A DNA stretch of 64,000 bases. Origin: a phage. The notes under the pieces were generated by a model. The model searched no databases, was not told the origin of the DNA, and worked only from the letters and a program-made list of their open reading frames with translations. A program made the position numbers and the translations under genes. The DNA is taken from the sequence record PV808484.1, one strand, 5' to 3'. This document shows, one piece after another, positions 3,298-63,257 of this stretch (positions are counted from its first letter, which is position 1; the number at the start of each line of letters is the position of its first letter).

Positions 3298-3355
3298 TTT
3301 GACAGCAGAAAAACAACGTAGTAAAGTTTATCACATAGGGCGGCAATAGTGCCGC
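3298..3355 (+). promoter_or_regulatory. TTGACA promoter plus leader hairpin GCGGCA-ATAG-TGCCGC
   Basis: read directly; precedes ATG 3379. Confidence 0.45.
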
Positions 3356-3378
3356 TCATAACAGAAGAGAAACAAATC

Positions 3379-3549
3379 ATGATCCCGACTATGTTTTATG
3401 TATCGCGCAAAGGTCACAATATTTTTTGGTCTGAAGATTTAAATGAAGCCATGACGTTTGCCCGTGATCGTGTTGCTATCGGTGGCGTTAACATTACTGT
3501 AACCGATGAAAATGGCATTGAATACTATAACGGCGACGATGAAGAGTAA
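3379..3549 (+). CDS. hypothetical protein (56 aa)
   Basis: internal ATG of ORF 3349..3549, lying after the leader hairpin. Confidence 0.4.
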   Translation: MIPTMFYVSRKGHNIFWSEDLNEAMTFARDRVAIGGVNITVTDENGIEYYNGDDEE

Positions 3550-12730: not shown

Positions 12731-13416
12731 TGAAAGAGATTATGTTTGAAGGGCATCGTTACGAAGTTCCAGACAATGCAAATTTCATGGCTCGTGATAT
12801 CACTGGAGATGTGTTCTGGTTTGAAGATGAACCTGTGTTTTCTTCGAACAAACACTGGTTTTCACAACAATCTTCTTCGGAAAATATGACTTTTGGCTAC
12901 GTAGAGCCTAAAGTGCGCTGCAAAGCAGCTTCTTCTTTGGTAAAAATTTCCCAAGATGATCAAGAAAATACTCCAGATGTTGTTAGTGCACTACTGAAGT
13001 ACATTGCAGAACTTGAGAAGAAAATTAAAGAAGCAGAAACTAAGGTGAAAGCACGATCAGCCATCATTGAAGCTATGTCTGAACGTATCTTAGAGCTAGA
13101 AGATTTGTGTGGAGAGGCTTATCAAGTGGTTGGTGCGCTGGCTTGTGAAGCACAAATGTTTGAAACTTCAGAACAAGTTTCACATATGTTAGATAATTTG
13201 AGTGAATGTAAAATGATTCATGATGATGTATTGCCATTTTGTTGCAATGTTAACAAAACAGAGCAAACACAAGATTCAGAAACAGTTTATGTTCCGCTAA
13301 TGTGTGTTCCAGATCATCTAAAAGGTGTATTCTCTTGTAAATGGTCGCTGTTGAGCGTTACTAATTGTGGTGAAAACTATTCTGCCAACATTGAATTGCT
13401 AAAACACGTTAAATAA
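12730..13416 (+). CDS. hypothetical protein with coiled-coil-like central segment
   Basis: ORF track; ATGA overlap. Confidence 0.5.
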   Translation: MKEIMFEGHRYEVPDNANFMARDITGDVFWFEDEPVFSSNKHWFSQQSSSENMTFGYVEPKVRCKAASSLVKISQDDQENTPDVVSALLKYIAELEKKIKEAETKVKARSAIIEAMSERILELEDLCGEAYQVVGALACEAQMFETSEQVSHMLDNLSECKMIHDDVLPFCCNVNKTEQTQDSETVYVPLMCVPDHLKGVFSCKWSLLSVTNCGENYSANIELLKHVK

Positions 13417-13426
13417 GGAGAGTAAT

Positions 13427-13831
13427 ATGTGGTCTGTTAAAATCAAATATAATGCGCAGTATTATGGTGGAAAGCCTTACGAAGTTGTTATTTGTGACTG
13501 TATCTCTAAAGAAGTTGCACAGCTTTGTGGTGCTGGTGTTAGTGAAGCTATGAACAAAATGCATAACTCGACTGTGCGTTACCTGGATCAAGATATTCCA
13601 GAAGATGTAAATGACTATGCTTACGAAGTTATTTACAGTGAAGGTAAGAAGCTCTCTATTGAAGATGCACTTAAAGCACTACCTGCTATGTGCAGCCCAA
13701 CACCAGAAGCAGTTAAAGAGATTTTACCAGAATCCAACCCCGATGAATATGCCTCTATGGTTGCTTCAGATATGTGGAATCTCTGTCGAGAAACTATGAT
13801 TAAAAATCTTGTGGAAATGGCGCATGAGTAA
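13427..13831 (+). CDS. hypothetical protein
   Basis: ORF track; AAGGAG RBS. Confidence 0.5.
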   Translation: MWSVKIKYNAQYYGGKPYEVVICDCISKEVAQLCGAGVSEAMNKMHNSTVRYLDQDIPEDVNDYAYEVIYSEGKKLSIEDALKALPAMCSPTPEAVKEILPESNPDEYASMVASDMWNLCRETMIKNLVEMAHE

Positions 13832-57642: not shown

Positions 57643-59376
57643 ATGAATATTTTTGCACCTTTTGCTACTGATTGGTATAAACCTGGTCACAAGCAGATGT
57701 ACAACCAAAATACAAAACTTATTTTCTCTAATTTAACTCCTCGTAATGATAAAAACTTTGCACACTATGCAGATCGTGAAGCACGTGGTGTCATTGTTTT
57801 AGGTATTCGTAGAGCAGTAACCGATGCTCTTGTAACTATGTGGGACGGCTTCTTTAAAATGTCTCGTAGTGCAGCAGTAAATAAATTTTATCGTATGTCT
57901 AAAAATGCATTAGGTGCTTCTGCTCCTTCTGCTGAATGTTGGGGAGAATTGCACGATTTAGGTTATCTTCCGCTGGAAGTTCGATCTCTGCCAGAAGGTG
58001 TTTTGTGTCCTATTGGTGTTCCTGTGTTTACTGTGCATAATACTTTAGAAAAATTCTTTTGGTTAACTAATTATGTGGAAACACTGTTGTCAGATGAAAC
58101 TTGGAAGACAATGACTAATGCCACAGCAGCTTTTCAGTATAAGCGTATCGCTATGGCATATGCGATGGCAACGTGTGATAATATTGATCACGTTAACTTC
58201 CAGTGTCATGACTTTAGCCTACGTGGTTTAAGTAATATCGAAGATGGTTATAAGAGTGGTATCGCTCATTTGGCATCGTTCACAGGAACAGATAATATTC
58301 TGGCTATTGAAACTGTACATGATTATTATGGTATTGATTATGATCAGTTTGTTGCAGGTTCTATTCCGGCTACAGAACATTCAGTAGCAACGACTAACAT
58401 TGGAGCTATTGTTGAAGATCTGAAGGAACATTTCCCACGTCTTAAAGATGATGTAGATTGGCTTCGTTATGTAGCAGAAAAAGAGTTTCTTCGTCGTTAT
58501 ATTGAAGAAATTGTTCCAGAAGGTTTTTGTTCATATGTAGCAGATTCTTATGATTACTGGGCTGTATTGACTAACATTCTGGTAGAGTTGAAAGATTCTA
58601 TTATGTCACGAAATGGTCGTCTTGTTATTCGTCCAGACTCAGGAGATCCGGTTAAAGTTGTTGCAGGATACAATATTGAATCTTTTGATAACTATGAAGA
58701 CCTTTTAAATAATGGTATTGCGACAGCCACTGAAGTAGTTCATTTGGCTGATGTTAATAAGTATTACAATGTTCTTCAGGATTGCAGTGTTGCTGACTGT
58801 ATTGATGAAACTTATGAAATTCCTTATTATGAAGCAGTAGGTTCTATTCAAATCCTTTGGGAAGTGTTTGGTGGTACTATCAACCGAAAAGGCTACAAGG
58901 TTCTTGATCAGCATATCGGTATGATTTATGGTGATTCTATTACTGTTGAACGAGAACACGAGATCTTACGCCGACTGAAGAAGAAAGGTTTTGCAGCTTC
59001 CAATATTGTATTTGGTGTTGGTAGTTATACTTATCAGTTCAATACACGAGATACTTTCGGTTTTGCTGTTAAAGCAACAGGTAGTATCATCGGTGAACAC
59101 GAAATTTTGGTAAGTAAGGAGCCTAAAACTGATCCTGGTAAACGCTCTGCAAAAGGCTTTATTAAGGTTGTTAAGGATACCAATGGTAATCTCTCTCTTG
59201 TAGATAATCTTTCTTTTAAAGATATCCAGGATGAAGACAATGAGTTACAAGTTATCTTCAAGAATGGTAAGGTTATTACACCACAAGTAGAAGGACGTGA
59301 TGAAACATTTACTGATATCCGCAACCGTGTTGACGTAGAGGTTCTTCGTACTATGGGAACCATCCAGGTTGACTAA
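57643..59376 (+). CDS. nadV: nicotinamide phosphoribosyltransferase (NAMPT/NadV)-like enzyme
   Basis: N-terminal FATDWYKPGHKQMY block typical of NAMPT; 577 aa with extensions. Confidence 0.85.
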   Translation: MNIFAPFATDWYKPGHKQMYNQNTKLIFSNLTPRNDKNFAHYADREARGVIVLGIRRAVTDALVTMWDGFFKMSRSAAVNKFYRMSKNALGASAPSAECWGELHDLGYLPLEVRSLPEGVLCPIGVPVFTVHNTLEKFFWLTNYVETLLSDETWKTMTNATAAFQYKRIAMAYAMATCDNIDHVNFQCHDFSLRGLSNIEDGYKSGIAHLASFTGTDNILAIETVHDYYGIDYDQFVAGSIPATEHSVATTNIGAIVEDLKEHFPRLKDDVDWLRYVAEKEFLRRYIEEIVPEGFCSYVADSYDYWAVLTNILVELKDSIMSRNGRLVIRPDSGDPVKVVAGYNIESFDNYEDLLNNGIATATEVVHLADVNKYYNVLQDCSVADCIDETYEIPYYEAVGSIQILWEVFGGTINRKGYKVLDQHIGMIYGDSITVEREHEILRRLKKKGFAASNIVFGVGSYTYQFNTRDTFGFAVKATGSIIGEHEILVSKEPKTDPGKRSAKGFIKVVKDTNGNLSLVDNLSFKDIQDEDNELQVIFKNGKVITPQVEGRDETFTDIRNRVDVEVLRTMGTIQVD

Positions 59377-59682: not shown

Positions 59683-59796
59683 ATGTCTACAGAAATTATT
59701 TTTGGCTTATCTGTTTTTATTGCTATTGTATCCTTTGTATGCGGTTATACACTATTTTTATTGCTGTTGTATCTTTTGTATGCTGCTCTACACTAG
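59683..59796 (+). CDS. small hydrophobic protein (37 aa) containing a tandem 41 bp duplication
   Basis: ACAGTATG start; direct repeat 59716-59755 and 59757-59796. Confidence 0.3.
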   Translation: MSTEIIFGLSVFIAIVSFVCGYTLFLLLLYLLYAALH

Positions 59797-59830
59797 GTTA
59801 CAGATTAAGAAAAAATATTGTAAAAACTAG

Positions 59831-59860
59831 TTGACAACATAGCTAGTTATTTGCTAAGAT
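59831..59860 (+). promoter_or_regulatory. TTGACA-type promoter
   Basis: TTGACA 59831-59836, TAAGAT about 18 bp downstream. Confidence 0.4.
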
Positions 59861-59889: not shown

Positions 59890-60156
59890 ATGACAGAAAA
59901 GACTTATGGCAAAGAATTGATTGAGAAGCACGTATTGATTGATAATAAAGGTGGAGCAATCTTTATTTTTGATCCTGAATCAGTTCTTACTGAAAACGAA
60001 AATGGTAGCGTTAGCCTTAAAACAGAAAGTTTGGTAATTGACTTCCTTGCTCTTCTGGATGAAATGGGGCTTCCTCACGAAGAAGAAGCAGCTATTGCTT
60101 TGATTGCAGTTCTTCTGGAGAAACGCGAAGCTGGTGAAATGACCCAGTATGCTTAA
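59890..60156 (+). CDS. hypothetical protein
   Basis: ORF track; AAAGGAG RBS. Confidence 0.5.
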   Translation: MTEKTYGKELIEKHVLIDNKGGAIFIFDPESVLTENENGSVSLKTESLVIDFLALLDEMGLPHEEEAAIALIAVLLEKREAGEMTQYA

Positions 60157-60163
60157 TATTCAA

Positions 60164-60239
60164 GGTTCCATAGCTCACTGACGAGAGCGCACACCTCATA
60201 AGTGTCGAGGGCAGGGATTGTAACACTGGGGAACCACCA
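60164..60239 (+). tRNA. tRNA-like element, possible tRNA-Met (anticodon loop CTCATAA), atypical T-loop
   Basis: 6 bp acceptor pairing GGTTCC/GGAACC, ACCA 3' end, D-stem GCTC/GAGC; T-loop ATTGTAA non-canonical. Confidence 0.35.
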
Positions 60240-60270
60240 TTTAAAAGGAGGTGTTATGCATCTCCTATAT

Positions 60271-60356
60271 GCAAGTGTGGTGGAATTGGTGATACACATT
60301 GTGCTTAAAACGCAACGCTTAAATGATTGAGGGTTCGAATCCCTCCACTTGCACCA
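60271..60356 (+). tRNA. tRNA-Leu (anticodon TAA), class II
   Basis: acceptor GCAAGTG/CACTTGC, T-arm GAGGG-TTCGAAT-CCCTC, anticodon loop CTTAAAA, long variable arm, encoded CCA. Confidence 0.7.
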
Positions 60357-60358
60357 AC

Positions 60359-60464
60359 GCCTAGTAGGGTATTTGGTAATTCCGAGGCCATCAAAGCCTG
60401 AAAAATATGTTAGACCGCTTTGTCTAACTAAATACGAAATATGGTTCGATTCCATAACTAGGCT
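60359..60464 (+). tRNA. atypical 106 nt tRNA-like element
   Basis: perfect 7 bp acceptor GCCTAGT/ACTAGGC and canonical T-arm TATGG-TTCGATT-CCATA, but about 30 nt too long; candidate anticodon loop CATCAAA. Confidence 0.3.
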
Positions 60465-60497
60465 TCAATTTAAATAGTAATTTTAGTAAAAAATATC

Positions 60498-60526
60498 TTG
60501 ACATTTACTTAGTTTTTTGTTATAGT
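60498..60526 (+). promoter_or_regulatory. promoter TTGACA-17-TATAGT driving downstream tRNAs
   Basis: read directly; ideal 17 bp spacing. Confidence 0.55.
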
Positions 60527-60537
60527 CGTTATGAAAA

Positions 60538-60619
60538 CGGGGTGTATCTCACCTGACTTCTAATCAGGCGTTAACCGAGTAATTGGAGTATGCAGGTTCG
60601 AATCCTGTCACCCCGGCCA
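60538..60619 (+). tRNA. tRNA-like element, possible tRNA-Arg (anticodon loop CTTCTAA) with irregular D region
   Basis: perfect acceptor CGGGGTG/CACCCCG, T-arm GCAGG-TTCGAAT-CCTGT, CCA; perfect stem-loop CCTGA-CTTCTAA-TCAGG; cloverleaf not resolved. Confidence 0.4.
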
Positions 60620-60682
60620 AAAAGTTTTAAAAACTACTTGACAAGCAAGATAGTTTTATGTTAGATTTAAAGTATGATAACT

Positions 60683-60772
60683 GGAAGGTAGGGCGCAGCG
60701 GTGCGCAACCAGGTTTGAACCCTGGCCCATTGTAGCGATACGGTGATGGTTCGACTCCATTATCTTCCTCCA
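60683..60772 (+). tRNA. tRNA-Ser (anticodon TGA), class II
   Basis: acceptor GGAAGGT/ATCTTCC, D-arm GCGC-AGCGGT-GCGC, anticodon arm CCAGG-TTTGAAC-CCTGG, 19 nt variable arm, T-arm GATGG-TTCGACT-CCATT, CCA. Confidence 0.8.
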
Positions 60773-60790
60773 AATTCAATGAGTGATTTT

Positions 60791-60943
60791 ATGAATTATA
60801 AAACTATTGGACAGGTTGTTACCGGAGTTAAGATTGTAAATAATAAAGTTGTTTATGAGTATTCTAATCTTCAACAATCTGAAGATGGTAAGAATATTCG
60901 TATGGTAAAAGCAGAACAAAAAGATTCCGGTTGTTTTGAATAA
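60791..60943 (+). CDS. hypothetical protein (50 aa)
   Basis: internal ATG of ORF 60743..60943; the upstream part overlaps tRNA-Ser. Confidence 0.35.
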   Translation: MNYKTIGQVVTGVKIVNNKVVYEYSNLQQSEDGKNIRMVKAEQKDSGCFE

Positions 60944-60951
60944 TTAAGAAC

Positions 60952-61037
60952 GGTAGATTGGTGAAATGGTAGCCACAACAGTTTGCTAAACTGTCGTCGG
61001 AAACGGCGTGTAGGTTCAAGTCCTACATCTACCGCCA
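60952..61037 (+). tRNA. tRNA-Ser (anticodon GCT), class II
   Basis: acceptor GGTAGAT/ATCTACC, anticodon arm ACAGT-TTGCTAA-ACTGT, variable hairpin CGTCGGAAACGGCG, T-arm GTAGG-TTCAAGT-CCTAC, CCA. Confidence 0.8.
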
Positions 61038-61172
61038 AGTTATCTTTAATGTAGCTTGTAATCTTACTTTAGCAGAGTAAATCTTCGGCAAGTGGCGGTA
61101 ACCACTTTACCGATACCCCAATACTTCATAGCTAAGTGCCGCAAACACTGGCTATTTTAAAGATAATTTTAT

Positions 61173-61247
61173 ACATCGTTAGCCAAGCGGTAAGGCACTT
61201 GACTTTTAATCAAGGGAGCGAAGGTTCGAATCCTTCACGATGTACCA
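61173..61247 (+). tRNA. tRNA-Lys (anticodon TTT)
   Basis: acceptor ACATCGT/ACGATGT, anticodon arm CTTGA-CTTTTAA-TCAAG, T-arm GAAGG-TTCGAAT-CCTTC, CCA. Confidence 0.85.
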
Positions 61248-61252
61248 AACAC

Positions 61253-61339
61253 GTAGGTATCGCATAGCGGCAATTGCTGGAGACTGTAAATCTCCTGCCC
61301 TTCGGGGCTTCGTTGGTTCGAGTCCAACTACCTGCACCA
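61253..61339 (+). tRNA. tRNA-Tyr (anticodon GTA), class II
   Basis: acceptor GTAGGTA/TACCTGC (one G-U), anticodon arm GGAGA-CTGTAAA-TCTCC, variable hairpin, T-arm GTTGG-TTCGAGT-CCAAC, CCA. Confidence 0.8.
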
Positions 61340-61346
61340 AATTAAA

Positions 61347-61431
61347 GATGGATTGGCCTAGTGGTTGGGCGACGGACTGTTAATCCGTGAACGAAAGTTC
61401 TAGCAAGGTTCAAATCCTTGATCCATCGCCA
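61347..61431 (+). tRNA. tRNA with Asn anticodon (GTT) on a class II (long variable arm) scaffold
   Basis: acceptor GATGGAT/ATCCATC, 3 bp D-stem GCC/GGC, anticodon arm ACGGA-CTGTTAA-TCCGT, 15 nt extra arm GAACGAAAGTTCTAG, T-arm CAAGG-TTCAAAT-CCTTG, G73, CCA. Confidence 0.65.
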
Positions 61432-61435
61432 AATA

Positions 61436-61504
61436 GTGCTTGTAGAGTTAATAGAAACCTCTAGAATTTTCTAGAATTGTAGGTATCAAATCCTACCAAG
61501 CAAA
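61436..61504 (+). tRNA. tRNA-like element, no encoded CCA, irregular anticodon region
   Basis: 6 bp acceptor pairing, T-arm GTAGG...CCTAC with 8 nt loop; region contains TCTAGA-ATTTTC-TAGA palindrome. Confidence 0.25.
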
Positions 61505-61510
61505 TATTTT

Positions 61511-61585
61511 GCTCCTATCGTATAACGGCTATTACGGTTGCCTTGTAAGCAACTTATCAGGGTTCGAGTCCTTGTGGGAGCACCA
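61511..61585 (+). tRNA. tRNA-Thr (anticodon TGT)
   Basis: acceptor GCTCCTA/TGGGAGC (one G-U), anticodon arm GTTGC-CTTGTAA-GCAAC, T-arm CAGGG-TTCGAGT-CCTTG, CCA. Confidence 0.8.
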
Positions 61586-61607
61586 ATTTAACTCTAAAGG
61601 AGTGTAT

Positions 61608-61931
61608 GTGACAGAAAAAGAGTTAGAGAAATATTTTAATATCAATGTTTTCGATGGTTTTGATGATATTGAAGATGTTGAAAGATACTATGAAGTAGAG
61701 TTAGATAAGGATAACATTGTAATTCTTTCTGCCACTTATGATTGTGCATATTATGAAGGCGAATCTCACGTTTATTTCTATGATATGAAAACATCTTTGT
61801 TTTATGAAGTACACGCATATCATTGTTCTTGTTATGGCTTAGAAGGTCAGTGGGAACCTGAAGAAATAGGTGATTTGAGCTTTACGGTTGCATATCTAAA
61901 CAGACGTGGTGCATCTACTATTTTAAAATAA
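61608..61931 (+). CDS. hypothetical protein
   Basis: GTG start 5 nt after AAAGGAG RBS; the ORF-track N-terminus overlaps tRNA-Thr. Confidence 0.45.
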   Translation: MTEKELEKYFNINVFDGFDDIEDVERYYEVELDKDNIVILSATYDCAYYEGESHVYFYDMKTSLFYEVHAYHCSCYGLEGQWEPEEIGDLSFTVAYLNRRGASTILK

Positions 61932-61945
61932 ATATTAAAAGCCTC

Positions 61946-61975
61946 TTGACAAAGGGGCTAATAATATGTTAGAGT
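61946..61975 (+). promoter_or_regulatory. TTGACA-type promoter upstream of tRNA-Gly
   Basis: TTGACA 61946-61951. Confidence 0.45.
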
Positions 61976-61986
61976 AATATTGTTAA

Positions 61987-62061
61987 GCGGGTATAGTGTT
62001 AATGGTAGCATATGAGGTTTCCACCCTCCAGGTGCAGGTTCAAGTCCTGTTACTCGCTCCA
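61987..62061 (+). tRNA. tRNA-Gly (anticodon TCC)
   Basis: acceptor GCGGGTA/TACTCGC, anticodon loop TTTCCAC, T-arm GCAGG-TTCAAGT-CCTGT, CCA. Confidence 0.7.
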
Positions 62062-62160
62062 AGATTATTTAAATGGAATCGCTAGAGAAAATTTCTCTTT
62101 TCGCTCATGGTTTTCTCCTTCAAACTCTAGCGGTTCTTTTTAAGTGATTTTTAGTTTTAT

Positions 62161-62235
62161 TGGAGATTAGCCTAGTGGGAAGGCAACGGCCTTTGAAGTC
62201 GTGATGACTAGGTTCGATTCCTAGATCTCCAGCCA
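62161..62235 (+). tRNA. tRNA-Gln (anticodon TTG)
   Basis: U1-A72 acceptor TGGAGAT/ATCTCCA, anticodon arm ACGGC-CTTTGAA-GTCGT, T-arm CTAGG-TTCGATT-CCTAG, CCA. Confidence 0.85.
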
Positions 62236-62242
62236 ATATTTA

Positions 62243-62318
62243 CAGTGCGTAGCGCAGTTGGTAGCGTGGGAGCTTTGGATGCTTCGGGTCGCAGGTTCGA
62301 GTCCTGCCGCACTGACCA
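62243..62318 (+). tRNA. tRNA-Pro (anticodon TGG)
   Basis: acceptor CAGTGCG/CGCACTG, D-arm GCGC-AGTTGGTA-GCGT, anticodon arm GGAGC-TTTGGAT-GCTTC, T-arm GCAGG-TTCGAGT-CCTGC, CCA. Confidence 0.85.
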
Positions 62319-62323
62319 AATTT

Positions 62324-62398
62324 GCAGAGATAGCTGAGACGGATTAGTGCTACCCTGAAAAGGTAGAAAGGATGGATCGTTACCATCTCTCTGCACCA
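62324..62398 (+). tRNA. tRNA-Phe (anticodon GAA)
   Basis: acceptor GCAGAGA/TCTCTGC, anticodon arm CTACC-CTGAAAA-GGTAG, T-arm GATGG-ATCGTTA-CCATC, CCA. Confidence 0.8.
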
Positions 62399-62475
62399 AA
62401 TAACACCATCCAAGGAGTAGACTTGGTTAACTGTCAATAGCACATTGAGGCTTCTTACAGTGGTGCACTTATTAT

Positions 62476-62560
62476 GGCTAAGTGGTGGAATGGTATACAC
62501 GATACGCTTAGAACGTATTGCCCCAAGGGATTGTGAGTTCGAGTCTCACCTTAGCTACCA
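62476..62560 (+). tRNA. tRNA-Leu (anticodon TAG), class II
   Basis: acceptor GGCTAAG/CTTAGCT, anticodon arm ATACG-CTTAGAA-CGTAT, long variable arm, T-arm GTGAG-TTCGAGT-CTCAC, CCA. Confidence 0.8.
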
Positions 62561-62575
62561 AATTACTACAGATTG

Positions 62576-62654
62576 CGCGGGATAGAGGAGTCTGGTCGTC
62601 CTCGCCAGTTTCATATGCTGGAGATCATCGGTTCGAATCCGATTCCCGCCTCCA
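62576..62654 (+). tRNA. tRNA-Met (anticodon CAT; elongator, initiator or Ile2 not distinguishable)
   Basis: acceptor with one C-C mismatch at pair 1-72, D-arm GAGG...CCTC, anticodon arm CCAGT-TTCATAT-GCTGG, T-arm ATCGG-TTCGAAT-CCGAT, CCA. Confidence 0.7.
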
Positions 62655-62698
62655 ATAAATACTTCCCTTCTGGTGTAATGATTAAATTACATTGACAC

Positions 62699-62795
62699 TT
62701 CAAGGAACTCATAGCCGGGTAGATTTAAAAGAGTATGGTACTCAATATGGCTCCAAACCATAGATCAGGGGGTTCGATTCCTCACCTTGCTGCCA
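62699..62795 (+). tRNA. tRNA-like element with Trp anticodon loop (CTCCAAA) but unpaired or extended 5' region
   Basis: perfect anticodon arm TATGG-CTCCAAA-CCATA, T-arm GGGGG-TTCGATT-CCTCA, CCA; 5' acceptor partner only 5 bp and about 22 nt too far upstream. Confidence 0.35.
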
Positions 62796-62800
62796 ATTAT

Positions 62801-62876
62801 TGTGGTATCGTACAGATGGTTAGTACACTCGACCGATAATCGAGAAACAACGGTTCGACTCCGTTTACCACGACCA
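62801..62876 (+). tRNA. tRNA-Ile (anticodon GAT)
   Basis: acceptor TGTGGTA/TACCACG, D-arm GTAC...GTAC, anticodon arm CTCGA-CCGATAA-TCGAG, T-arm AACGG-TTCGACT-CCGTT, CCA. Confidence 0.85.
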
Positions 62877-62987
62877 AACTCCGTGCCAGCGGTGTCTTCG
62901 AAGAACAAGCCTAGTTCCTTCTGAGATGGAGGGGTGCGACTCCTTAACGCACAATATACTACTACTAAATACTTATCAGGAGATATC

Positions 62988-63257
62988 ATGTATACTTTAA
63001 AAGTAATTCGCAAGTTTCCTCAAGAAGAGGAAGTAAGAATTTATAACACTGTACCATTCGTAGTAAATGAAGAAGAATTCTTTTATTGCTTAGAAGATGA
63101 AGTAATTATTCAATATCATTGGGAAGGTTACGACAGACAAGATGGTGTTGTAGCTTCTGTGCTTGCTGGTGATAGAGTGTTATTCATTCACAAAACTGAA
63201 TCAGCATATTTAATGAATGATAAAGGACAAACTGTTAAAGTAATTAACAGACCATAA
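62988..63257 (+). CDS. hypothetical protein
   Basis: ATG 62988 after AGGAGA RBS; the ORF-track GTG start at 62934 lies in tRNA-like sequence. Confidence 0.45.
   Translation: MYTLKVIRKFPQEEEVRIYNTVPFVVNEEEFFYCLEDEVIIQYHWEGYDRQDGVVASVLAGDRVLFIHKTESAYLMNDKGQTVKVINRP

Follow-up and report, generated by a model that had tools for sequence, protein, structure and literature searches.

Permuted and split transfer RNA (tRNA) genes, in which the segments are encoded in a non-canonical order, occur in Cyanidioschyzon merolae and in archaea, where processing restores a canonical mature tRNA. Departures from the standard cloverleaf in the tRNA itself have also been described: D-armless tRNAs of animal mitochondria carry a short connector in place of the D-arm, are flexible, and in many cases are weakened in the T arm and elbow (PMC7609411), and the 8/4 and 9/3 allo-tRNAs, as described by Mukai et al. 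(PMC5389517), have altered acceptor and T stem lengths while the order of the cloverleaf is kept. Here, we analyze a tRNA cluster in the window, by which we mean the whole stretch of 64,000 nucleotides (nt) of phage DNA under study (PV808484.1), and in particular an 82-nt element on its plus strand at 60538-60619, hereafter element b, which we propose is probably a functional tRNA-Arg(UCU) whose D region has been rewired.

Results

Element b has no D-arm and carries a covarying long-range pairing

Over bases 60100-63000, the window matches Escherichia phage EmilieFrey (Bas61, MZ501063.1), a phi92-like member of Justusliebigvirus in the Stephanstirmvirinae, at 100% identity, and it corresponds to the final 64 kilobases (kb) (right end) of that record. 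The same cluster is present in about 56 sister genomes at 95-99% identity. ARAGORN with default settings found 14 tRNAs within 60271-62876, the identical set is annotated in MZ501063.1, and an earlier note made from the sequence alone had arrived at the same 14; this part of the cluster is ordinary and annotated already. Thirteen of the 14 matched the Rfam tRNA model (RF00005) at 48-74 bits, and the model returned one extra match, at 60538-60616. The earlier note had additionally drawn attention to four irregular elements, which we call a to d. All four were recovered by software at or near the positions it gave, elements a, c, and d with relaxed or mitochondrial settings of ARAGORN and element b with Rfam, and none was re-registered as an ordinary tRNA.

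Element b scored 38.6 bits against the Rfam tRNA model, above the gathering threshold of 29. In the corresponding alignment, 15 positions of the D-arm of the model are deleted, leaving 4 nt, and a 20-nt insert follows the anticodon arm. Most of the molecule is that of a standard tRNA: a 7-base-pair (bp) acceptor stem (60538-60544 with 60609-60615), an anticodon arm (60552-60568) with a 5-bp stem, a 7-nt loop, U33, and the anticodon TCT at 60559-60561, a T arm (60592-60608) with a 5-bp stem and a TTCRA loop, a discriminator G at 60616, and an encoded CCA at 60617-60619. As the earlier note had recognized, there is no room for a D-arm; only 7 nt separate the acceptor and anticodon stems, so a D hairpin at positions 10-25 is impossible. 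Instead, a predicted 3-bp helix encloses the anticodon arm. Its 5′ strand (CTC, 60548-60550) consists of the three bases after U8-A9-U10 (60545-60547), and its 3′ strand (GAG, 60577-60579) lies 3′ of the anticodon arm, beyond an 8-nt linker (CGTTAACC, 60569-60576), as the three bases before the D-loop-like motif UAAUUGGA. The whole D-loop-like segment, TAATTGGAGTAT (60580-60591), abuts the T arm, includes a GGA at 60585-60587, and is near-invariant in our alignments A1 and A2.

The case for the long-range helix rests on covariation because neither RNAalifold nor RNAfold recovers it. We collected homologues (see below) and examined them as a first alignment (A1, 38 sequences) and as a later set of 62 distinct sequences. 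In A1, the acceptor, anticodon, and T stems are paired in 99%, 96%, and 99% of cells, respectively, with double changes at 14 of their 17 pairs. In the later set, 59 of 62 sequences are exactly 82 nt long, the T-loop is canonical, and 43 encode NCCA. The long-range helix (pairs 11-13 with 40-42) is paired in 186 of 186 cells, 100% of them Watson–Crick, and exists in seven variants (CUC:GAG, CGC:GCG, CAU:AUG, CAG:CUG, CGG:CCG, CAC:GUG, and CUU:AAG). Double changes occupy 35 cells, compared with 7.5 ± 2.0 in shuffled controls, and pairings slid out of register are formed in only 11-42% of cells. We conclude that the long-range helix very probably exists.

These data bear directly on a simpler account, in which element b would be an ordinary tRNA resembling class II, with its D region reduced to a minimum and its variable arm long, so that its canonical fold had been mis-registered and the long-range helix would be an artefact. 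Consistent with such an account, the minimum free energy (MFE) fold of the single sequence places a 4-bp hairpin within the 23 nt that follow the anticodon arm, the Rfam score exceeds the gathering threshold for tRNA, and tRNAscan-based pipelines label the element “tRNA-OTHER” in two sister phages. However, compensatory change is all but absent from the local hairpin (columns 38-41 with 46-49), which has one double-change cell and in which 6, 9, 4, and 20 of 38 cells are unpaired at the four successive pairs, whereas the long-range helix has no unpaired cell in 62 sequences. We therefore regard the class-II account as barely credible.

If the long-range helix takes the place of the D stem, the bases of the tRNA core can be assigned by analogy. 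The GG of the D-loop-like segment would be G18 and G19 and the A that follows (60587) would be A20; more fully, among the invariant unpaired bases, U8 and A9 of element b may keep their canonical places and A44 may stand for A14, A45 for R15, G48/G49 for G18/G19, A50 for A20, and U54 for Y48. The segments equivalent to canonical positions 10-21 and 22-43 would then be swapped in order, with the core bases retained.

A family of proposed rewired tRNAs is widespread in phages, and its base after GG tracks the anticodon class

BLAST searches found near-full-length homologues of element b, almost none of them annotated, in the tRNA clusters of widely differing phages, among them Felixounavirus, Kuravirus, Sugarlandvirus, the jumbo-phage genus Asteriusvirus, Mydovirus, a Vibrio phage, and Streptomyces phage Stanimal, and two pattern scans of IMG/VR enlarged the set to the 62 sequences described above. 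A covariance model built from the alignment (R1) scored element b at 101 bits, the family at 83-103 bits, and canonical tRNAs at 35 bits or less. Matches of intermediate score have the same architecture with the Arg anticodons ACG, GCG, and UCG.

Scans that fix just the D-loop-like segment and the T arm leave the anticodon free. When the segment was given as TAATTGGA, the anticodons recovered were almost all Arg; when it was given as TAATTGG followed by C, G, or T, all were Ile-type (UAU, GAU, or CAU). Pooling the family gave 156 distinct sequences at 149 loci, among which an A after the GG accompanies an Arg anticodon (UCU, CCU, ACG, UCG, or GCG) in 127 of 128 cases, the single exception being locus L190 (GAU, Ile), and, with any other base there, 28 of 28 sequences have both an Ile-type anticodon and discriminator A (Fisher p = 5e-30). 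The Ile-type members (IMG/VR loci L405-L523, for example L405, L418, and L426) have T after the GG, rarely G or C. Across the pooled family, 123 of 156 members form every pair of the long-range helix, compared with 35.5 ± 4.7 after shuffling, and at least 15 helix variants are represented. Some loci encode several rewired tRNA-Arg genes: L141 has two (CCU and UCU, at 12999-13080 and 13348-13429) and L079 has three (UCU, GCG, and UCG, at 478-558, 3326-3405, and 3407-3496).

The identity set of E. coli arginyl-tRNA synthetase (ArgRS) comprises A20, C35, U36 or G36, and A73 or G73. Element b has C35 and U36, a purine discriminator (G), and, after the presumed G18-G19, an A that would be the equivalent of A20. 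Since A20 is, for ArgRS, the major identity element (Shimada et al. 2001, as cited in PMC12475279), the correlation between the base after GG and the anticodon class speaks for the G18-G19-N20 assignment and also for real aminoacylation.

The family is essentially restricted to phages. One pattern that matches 78 IMG/VR stretches had four true matches in 185,579 species genomes, all on contigs of metagenome-assembled genomes (MAGs) dense in tRNA genes, and no copy of element b was found in 5,426 complete E. coli genomes. These genes are also largely overlooked: ARAGORN with default settings detects 6 of 80, and GenBank records almost never annotate them.

Canonical tRNA genes are depleted beside rewired ones of the same anticodon

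Loci with a family member seldom carry a canonical tRNA of the same anticodon as well. A canonical Arg(tct) gene is present in 5 of 71 loci with a rewired UCU tRNA and in 13 of 37 with another rewired anticodon (p = 6e-4), and a canonical ACG tRNA in 0 of 22 loci with a rewired ACG tRNA and in 22 of 86 with another rewired anticodon (p = 0.006), although the loci are partial genome views of about 15 kb or less, which makes this an imperfect test of exclusion. In the EmilieFrey cluster itself, neither ARAGORN nor the MZ501063.1 annotation places a canonical tRNA-Arg, and in the sister genus Phapecoctavirus a canonical Arg(tct) is present and the rewired copy absent. AGA accounts for only a few percent of Arg codons in E. 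coli; in the window, which is 37% G+C, it is used 9.6 times per 1000 codons and makes up 23% of Arg codons.

These observations also help to weigh the possibility that the family consists of non-decoding tRNA mimics, acting as decoys or inhibitors of a host factor such as a tRNA-Arg nuclease or a modification or repair enzyme, or of nuclease-resistant spare tRNAs whose odd D region serves solely for escape from defence. Phage tRNAs are known to neutralise tRNA-cleaving defences (PMC10264068, PMC11555353, PMC11464382), and elements a, b, and d of this one cluster all have abnormal D or elbow regions. A pure decoy role is nonetheless hard to reconcile with the five different Arg anticodons, which a decoy for an anticodon-specific nuclease would not need, with the base after GG switching together with the Arg or Ile anticodon class, and with depletion beside a canonical tRNA of the same anticodon, which would not be expected. 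An encoded CCA and a canonical T-loop would likewise be unneeded. We therefore consider a non-decoding role unlikely; the version in which the tRNAs are resistant yet functional is compatible with a rewired, decoding tRNA-Arg and is not a true rival to it.

Several further points weigh against our interpretation of element b as a rewired tRNA, in addition to the imperfect test of exclusion. Folding software does not side with it: the 3-bp helix is not predicted by RNAalifold, and the MFE fold of the single sequence favours the local hairpin. The patterns used to retrieve homologues fix CTTCTAA/CGTT/GTAA or TAATTGG/ATG/GTTCGA, so the invariance of those columns is partly by construction, and because the sequences are phylogenetically related the shuffle statistics overstate their independence. 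The mapping onto U8, A14, R15, G18, G19, A20, and Y48 is by analogy only. Finally, tRNA-Ile(UAU) genes of about 89 nt have a normal D-arm in addition to TAATTGG in a long variable region, and thus the segment may have a role other than replacing the D-loop. In these genes, which are found at IMG/VR loci L407, L408, L411, L420, and many others, TAATTGG lies just before the T arm; they may be evolutionary intermediates or a sign of a separate role for TAATTGG.

Other irregular elements differ in conservation

Element d was described in the earlier note as a Trp-like element at 62699-62795 with an unpaired 5′ acceptor. The element is real, and a better register for it is 62713-62795 (plus strand, 83 nt), in which the acceptor pairs as AGCCGGG/CCTTGCT. 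It was detected as a tRNA-Trp(CCA)-like gene by ARAGORN with the -mt and -ps80 settings, and relaxed runs placed it at 62718-62795 or 62713-62795. Its anticodon and T arms are normal, it ends in GCCA, and the remainder consists of an 11-nt linker (TAGATTTAAAA) and a small D hairpin, GAGT-ATGGT-ACTC. The element is conserved in Klebsiella Stephanstirmvirinae and some Ounavirinae, and homologues in Klebsiella phage KP13-26, Hafnia phage SarahDanielle, LPML1, and locus L069 carry compensatory changes in the acceptor and D stem. A specific pattern for a wider family matched only Justusliebigvirus, KP13-26, SarahDanielle-like, and LPML1 copies. A looser 14-base pattern gave 119 matches in the loci collected, none followed by a T-loop, and these are probably due to chance.

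Element a (60164-60239, plus strand) was found by ARAGORN only at the relaxed threshold (-ps80), as a cloverleaf tRNA(CAU). The earlier note had described a CAT loop and an odd T-loop, and the element does have a CAU anticodon and the T-loop ATTGTAA. All four arms are present, with a D-loop (ACTGACGA) that lacks GG, a 4-bp anticodon stem, and an A·G pair at 7:66, and there is no Rfam match at E ≤10. Sister phages label it tRNA-Met or “hypothetical tRNA.” In EmilieFrey, a C to A change at T-stem position 62 creates a G·A mismatch that is not in any sister examined. We conclude that elements a and d are conserved and are probably tRNAs with abnormal elbow or D regions.

A fifth tRNA-like element, e (60359-60467, plus strand), was missing from the list of the earlier note. 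It was recovered by relaxed ARAGORN (60359-60464) and resembles the selenocysteine (Sec) tRNA. Several features are those expected of a tRNA-Sec: a 6-bp D stem with a 4-nt loop (GGTATT-TGGT-AATTCC, with five of six pairs formed here and six of six in homologues), a UCA anticodon, in the loop CAUCAAA with A rather than U at position 33, and a long variable hairpin (GTTAGAC/GTCTAAC). The T arm is canonical. Against the Rfam tRNA-Sec model (RF01852), element e scores 29.4 bits and its Salmonella phage homologue L167 scores 39.1 bits, both below the gathering threshold of 47, and the 7-bp acceptor is too short for the 13-bp acceptor/T helix (8/5 in bacteria). Ithacavirus and Henunavirus phages have homologues in which the acceptor and D stems show compensatory changes, examples being Salmonella phage UTK0002 (Schitoviridae) and Erwinia phage pEa_SNUABM_55 (Vequintavirinae). 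The search for a wider family found only three lineages, and phi92 lacks the element. Element e could be a UGA-reading tRNA or a mimic in the Sec pathway.

Element c (61436-61504, plus strand) was found only with the mitochondrial settings of ARAGORN (-mt). It has a 6-bp acceptor and, in agreement with the earlier description of a palindromic interior and no CCA, a hairpin with the palindrome TCTAGA replaces the anticodon loop and the CCA is lacking. No homologues were found outside Justusliebigvirus, within which identity is at least 95%. Decay is plausible here because the element is restricted to this genus, has a palindromic hairpin for an anticodon loop, and has a T-loop of 8 nt, one base longer than normal. 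We conclude that element c is probably a decayed copy.

The earlier note had suggested that the irregular elements might be decoys, processing-dependent precursors, or decayed copies, explanations that suit only some of them. On one such view, the irregular elements are functionless tRNA pseudogenes left by turnover of the cluster. Besides element c, the private T-stem mismatch of element a in EmilieFrey fits this view, as does the presence of element e in only about 31 Justusliebigvirus records of the phage collection compared with about 56 with the full cluster, and the phi92 record marks tRNA-Ser(TGA) and tRNA-Phe as pseudo. Yet the 156 sequences of the element b family, in unrelated phages, keep their length, compensated stems, anticodon class, and amino acid identity bases, element d has compensatory acceptor and D-stem changes across two subfamilies, and element e has compensatory changes across three phage families. 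Conservation with covariation thus already refutes decay for element b and largely refutes it for elements d and e, and as an explanation of the irregular elements in general it is very improbable.

We also considered a sequence just 3′ of tRNA-Ile (element f, 62884-62955), which can be folded into a T-arm-like hairpin (GGAG-GGGTGCGA-CTCC) and a second hairpin, long and imperfect, that shows compensatory changes. It is conserved in Justusliebigvirus, Phapecoctavirus, and Klebsiella Stephanstirmvirinae. We rejected it as a tRNA, as it has the T-arm-like hairpin but no acceptor stem. The spacers at 61038-61172, 62062-62160, and 62399-62475 contain hairpins but no T-loop.

Canonical tRNAs, promoters, and neighbouring genes

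The 14 canonical genes, all on the plus strand, found by ARAGORN, and annotated in MZ501063.1, are Leu-taa (60271-60356), Ser-tga (60683-60772), Ser-gct (60952-61037), Lys-ttt (61173-61247), Tyr-gta (61253-61339), Asn-gtt (61347-61431), Thr-tgt (61511-61585), Gly-tcc (61987-62061), Gln-ttg (62161-62235), Pro-tgg (62243-62318), Phe-gaa (62324-62398), Leu-tag (62476-62560), Met-cat (62576-62654), and Ile-gat (62801-62876). Some are unusual. The only Rfam match of tRNA-Ser(UGA) is a weak one to the tRNA-Sec model, and tRNA-Phe has the non-consensus T-loop ATCGTTA. The 85-nt tRNA-Asn(GUU) has a long variable arm that is class-II-like and atypical for Asn; annotated tRNA-Asn genes of 85-86 nt are also found in Phapecoctavirus UP17 and Klebsiella phage phi1_175008. 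The gene at 62576-62654, annotated as tRNA-fMet, is 79 nt long, with a C1·C72 mismatch and an enlarged D-arm, and its anticodon stem apparently lacks the three G-C pairs typical of initiators.

According to the earlier note, several strong TTGACA-17-TATAGT promoters lie inside the cluster. Four plus-strand sites (59831, 60498, 60638, and 61946) do have a perfect TTGACA and a -10 with a TG extension, each matching in 10 or more of 12 positions, but only the one at 60498 has the exact form, and the total number of promoter-like sites does not exceed that of shuffled sequences (16 versus 10.7 ± 3.7). The exact site (60498-60526), a putative sigma-70-type promoter with a TG extension and 11 of 12 matches, is the best in the region; it lies directly 5′ of element b and is kept together with it in phi92. 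Two others, each with 10 of 12 matches and a TG extension, are TTGACA-18-TAGATT (60638-60667), 5′ of tRNA-Ser(tga), and TTGACA-18-TAGAGT (61946-61975), 5′ of tRNA-Gly.

Embedded between the tRNAs are two conserved small open reading frames (ORFs), rather than the three previously claimed: bas61_0261 (50 amino acids, 60791-60943, plus strand), between the tRNA-Ser genes, which matches phrog_22441 (E = 2e-39), and bas61_0267 (107 amino acids, 61608-61931, plus strand), between tRNA-Thr and tRNA-Gly, which matches phrog_8792 (E = 1.4e-43), both families of unknown function. Just 5′ of the cluster is a nicotinamide phosphoribosyltransferase gene (577 amino acids, 57643-59376), and a region with a small hydrophobic ORF (59683-59834) contains an imperfect tandem repeat of about 41 nt (TTTTTATTGCT.TTGTATC.TTTGTATGC...ACACTA). 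HNH homing endonuclease genes lie in or beside the tRNA clusters of several relatives (for example, ALITA, VEcB, PATM, and Sugarland); that of Sugarland (L006:691-1200) is directly 3′ of the element b homologue. Two phages recorded as Campylobacter phages, A145 and A110a, have a cluster about 99-100% identical to this one from an E. coli phage, and LPML1, recorded as a Listeria phage, is classified in Ounavirinae and has the element d homologue noted above. The host labels of these three records (MG065645.1, MG065689.1, and OK283618.1) look doubtful.

Discussion

Together, our data are best explained if element b is a functional, structurally rewired tRNA-Arg(UCU) that decodes AGA, a reading that we hold to be probable on the strength of sequence comparison. 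The analysis shows a sequence family, the helix, the correlations with anticodon and identity base, and a distribution complementary to that of canonical tRNAs; the three-dimensional fold, charging, decoding, and any selective reason for the rewiring are inferences. In the RNA, the acceptor strand would be followed by U8-A9-U10, CUC, the anticodon arm, the 8-nt linker, and a GAG that pairs back to the CUC; then would come UAAUUGGAGUAU, with the GG and A normally found in the D-loop, and finally a standard T arm and GCCA. We propose that a promoter of its own would drive transcription of this RNA, that trimming would leave the encoded CCA at its end, that it would fold as an L-shape, that host ArgRS would charge it through A20, C35, U36, and G73, and that it would read AGA and perhaps AGG.

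More tentatively, and with somewhat less than even confidence, we suggest that phages of many unrelated lineages (Stephanstirmvirinae, Ounavirinae, Vequintavirinae, Demerecviridae, Kuravirus, Asteriusvirus, and Streptomyces and Vibrio phages) encode an undescribed class of translationally active tRNAs in which the D-stem strands flank the anticodon arm, the D-loop bases follow the stem, and the L-shape is kept. The class would contain Arg and Ile acceptors only, for AGA, AUA, and related codons, and may have spread because it escapes host nucleases or other factors that recognise a normal D-arm while keeping ArgRS or isoleucyl-tRNA synthetase (IleRS) identity.

If rewired tRNAs are charged and used on the ribosome, the segment order of the cloverleaf would not be obligatory with ordinary bacterial synthetases, EF-Tu, and ribosomes. 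This would bear on tRNA folding, on synthetase recognition (especially the reading of A20 by ArgRS), and on the design of orthogonal tRNAs. Because default ARAGORN finds so few of these genes and GenBank rarely annotates them, phage tRNA repertoires would be systematically listed without their AGA, CGN, and AUA decoders, and the missing decoders would bias studies of codon compensation and of the contest in which phage tRNAs and host defences evolve against each other. The cluster is open to experiment in phages that can be cultured on E. coli, including those of the BASEL collection, phi92, and Felix O1-like phages.

Our full-text literature search, which included the literal sequence motif, returned no account of the rewired architecture within the literature searched, and a 2020 review of non-canonical tRNAs (PMC7609411) mentions neither phages nor permuted forms. 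The architecture appears to be both undescribed and widespread.

In function, the closest relatives of element b are ordinary phage tRNA-Arg(UCU) genes. It shares the anticodon loop CUUCUAA with the canonical tRNA-Arg(UCU) of the T5-like phage SuperGirl (bas29_0081) and with tRNA-Arg(tct) of Phapecoctavirus UP17. The SuperGirl tRNA matches it exactly in the acceptor 5′ strand (CGGGGTG), T8-A9, the T arm (GCAGGTTCGAATCCTGT), the discriminator G, and the CCA, and differs at one base of the acceptor 3′ strand. The slot for tRNA-Arg is filled by a canonical gene in Phapecoctavirus, the sister genus, and by the rewired one in EmilieFrey. Unlike the canonical tRNAs, element b has no D hairpin, carries the D 3′ strand and the GG-A loop after the anticodon arm, and measures 82 nt rather than about 75-77.

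In form, the nearest precedents are mitochondrial D-armless tRNAs and allo-tRNAs, neither of which has the connectivity of element b. Like element b, the D-armless tRNA-Ser(AGY/UCU) of animal mitochondria has no D hairpin between the acceptor and anticodon stems and reads AGN. Element b does not belong to that type, however, as conservation of its T-loop and GG elbow bases is complete and it keeps, in a new connectivity, a covarying stem the size of a D stem; its setting differs as well, bacterial viruses with the host cytosolic machinery. Allo-tRNAs, as described in PMC5389517, resemble the rewired family in having been mined from sequence, in occurring partly in phages, and in having been missed or mislabelled by standard annotation. 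Against that description, the rewired family keeps the 7/5 stem lengths and changes the strand order of the D region.

Permuted and split tRNA genes share with element b a non-canonical order of gene segments. In element b, however, the swap is internal, two cuts and two ligations would be needed to undo it, and nothing suggests such processing. The covarying helix instead supports the function of element b in the order in which it is encoded.

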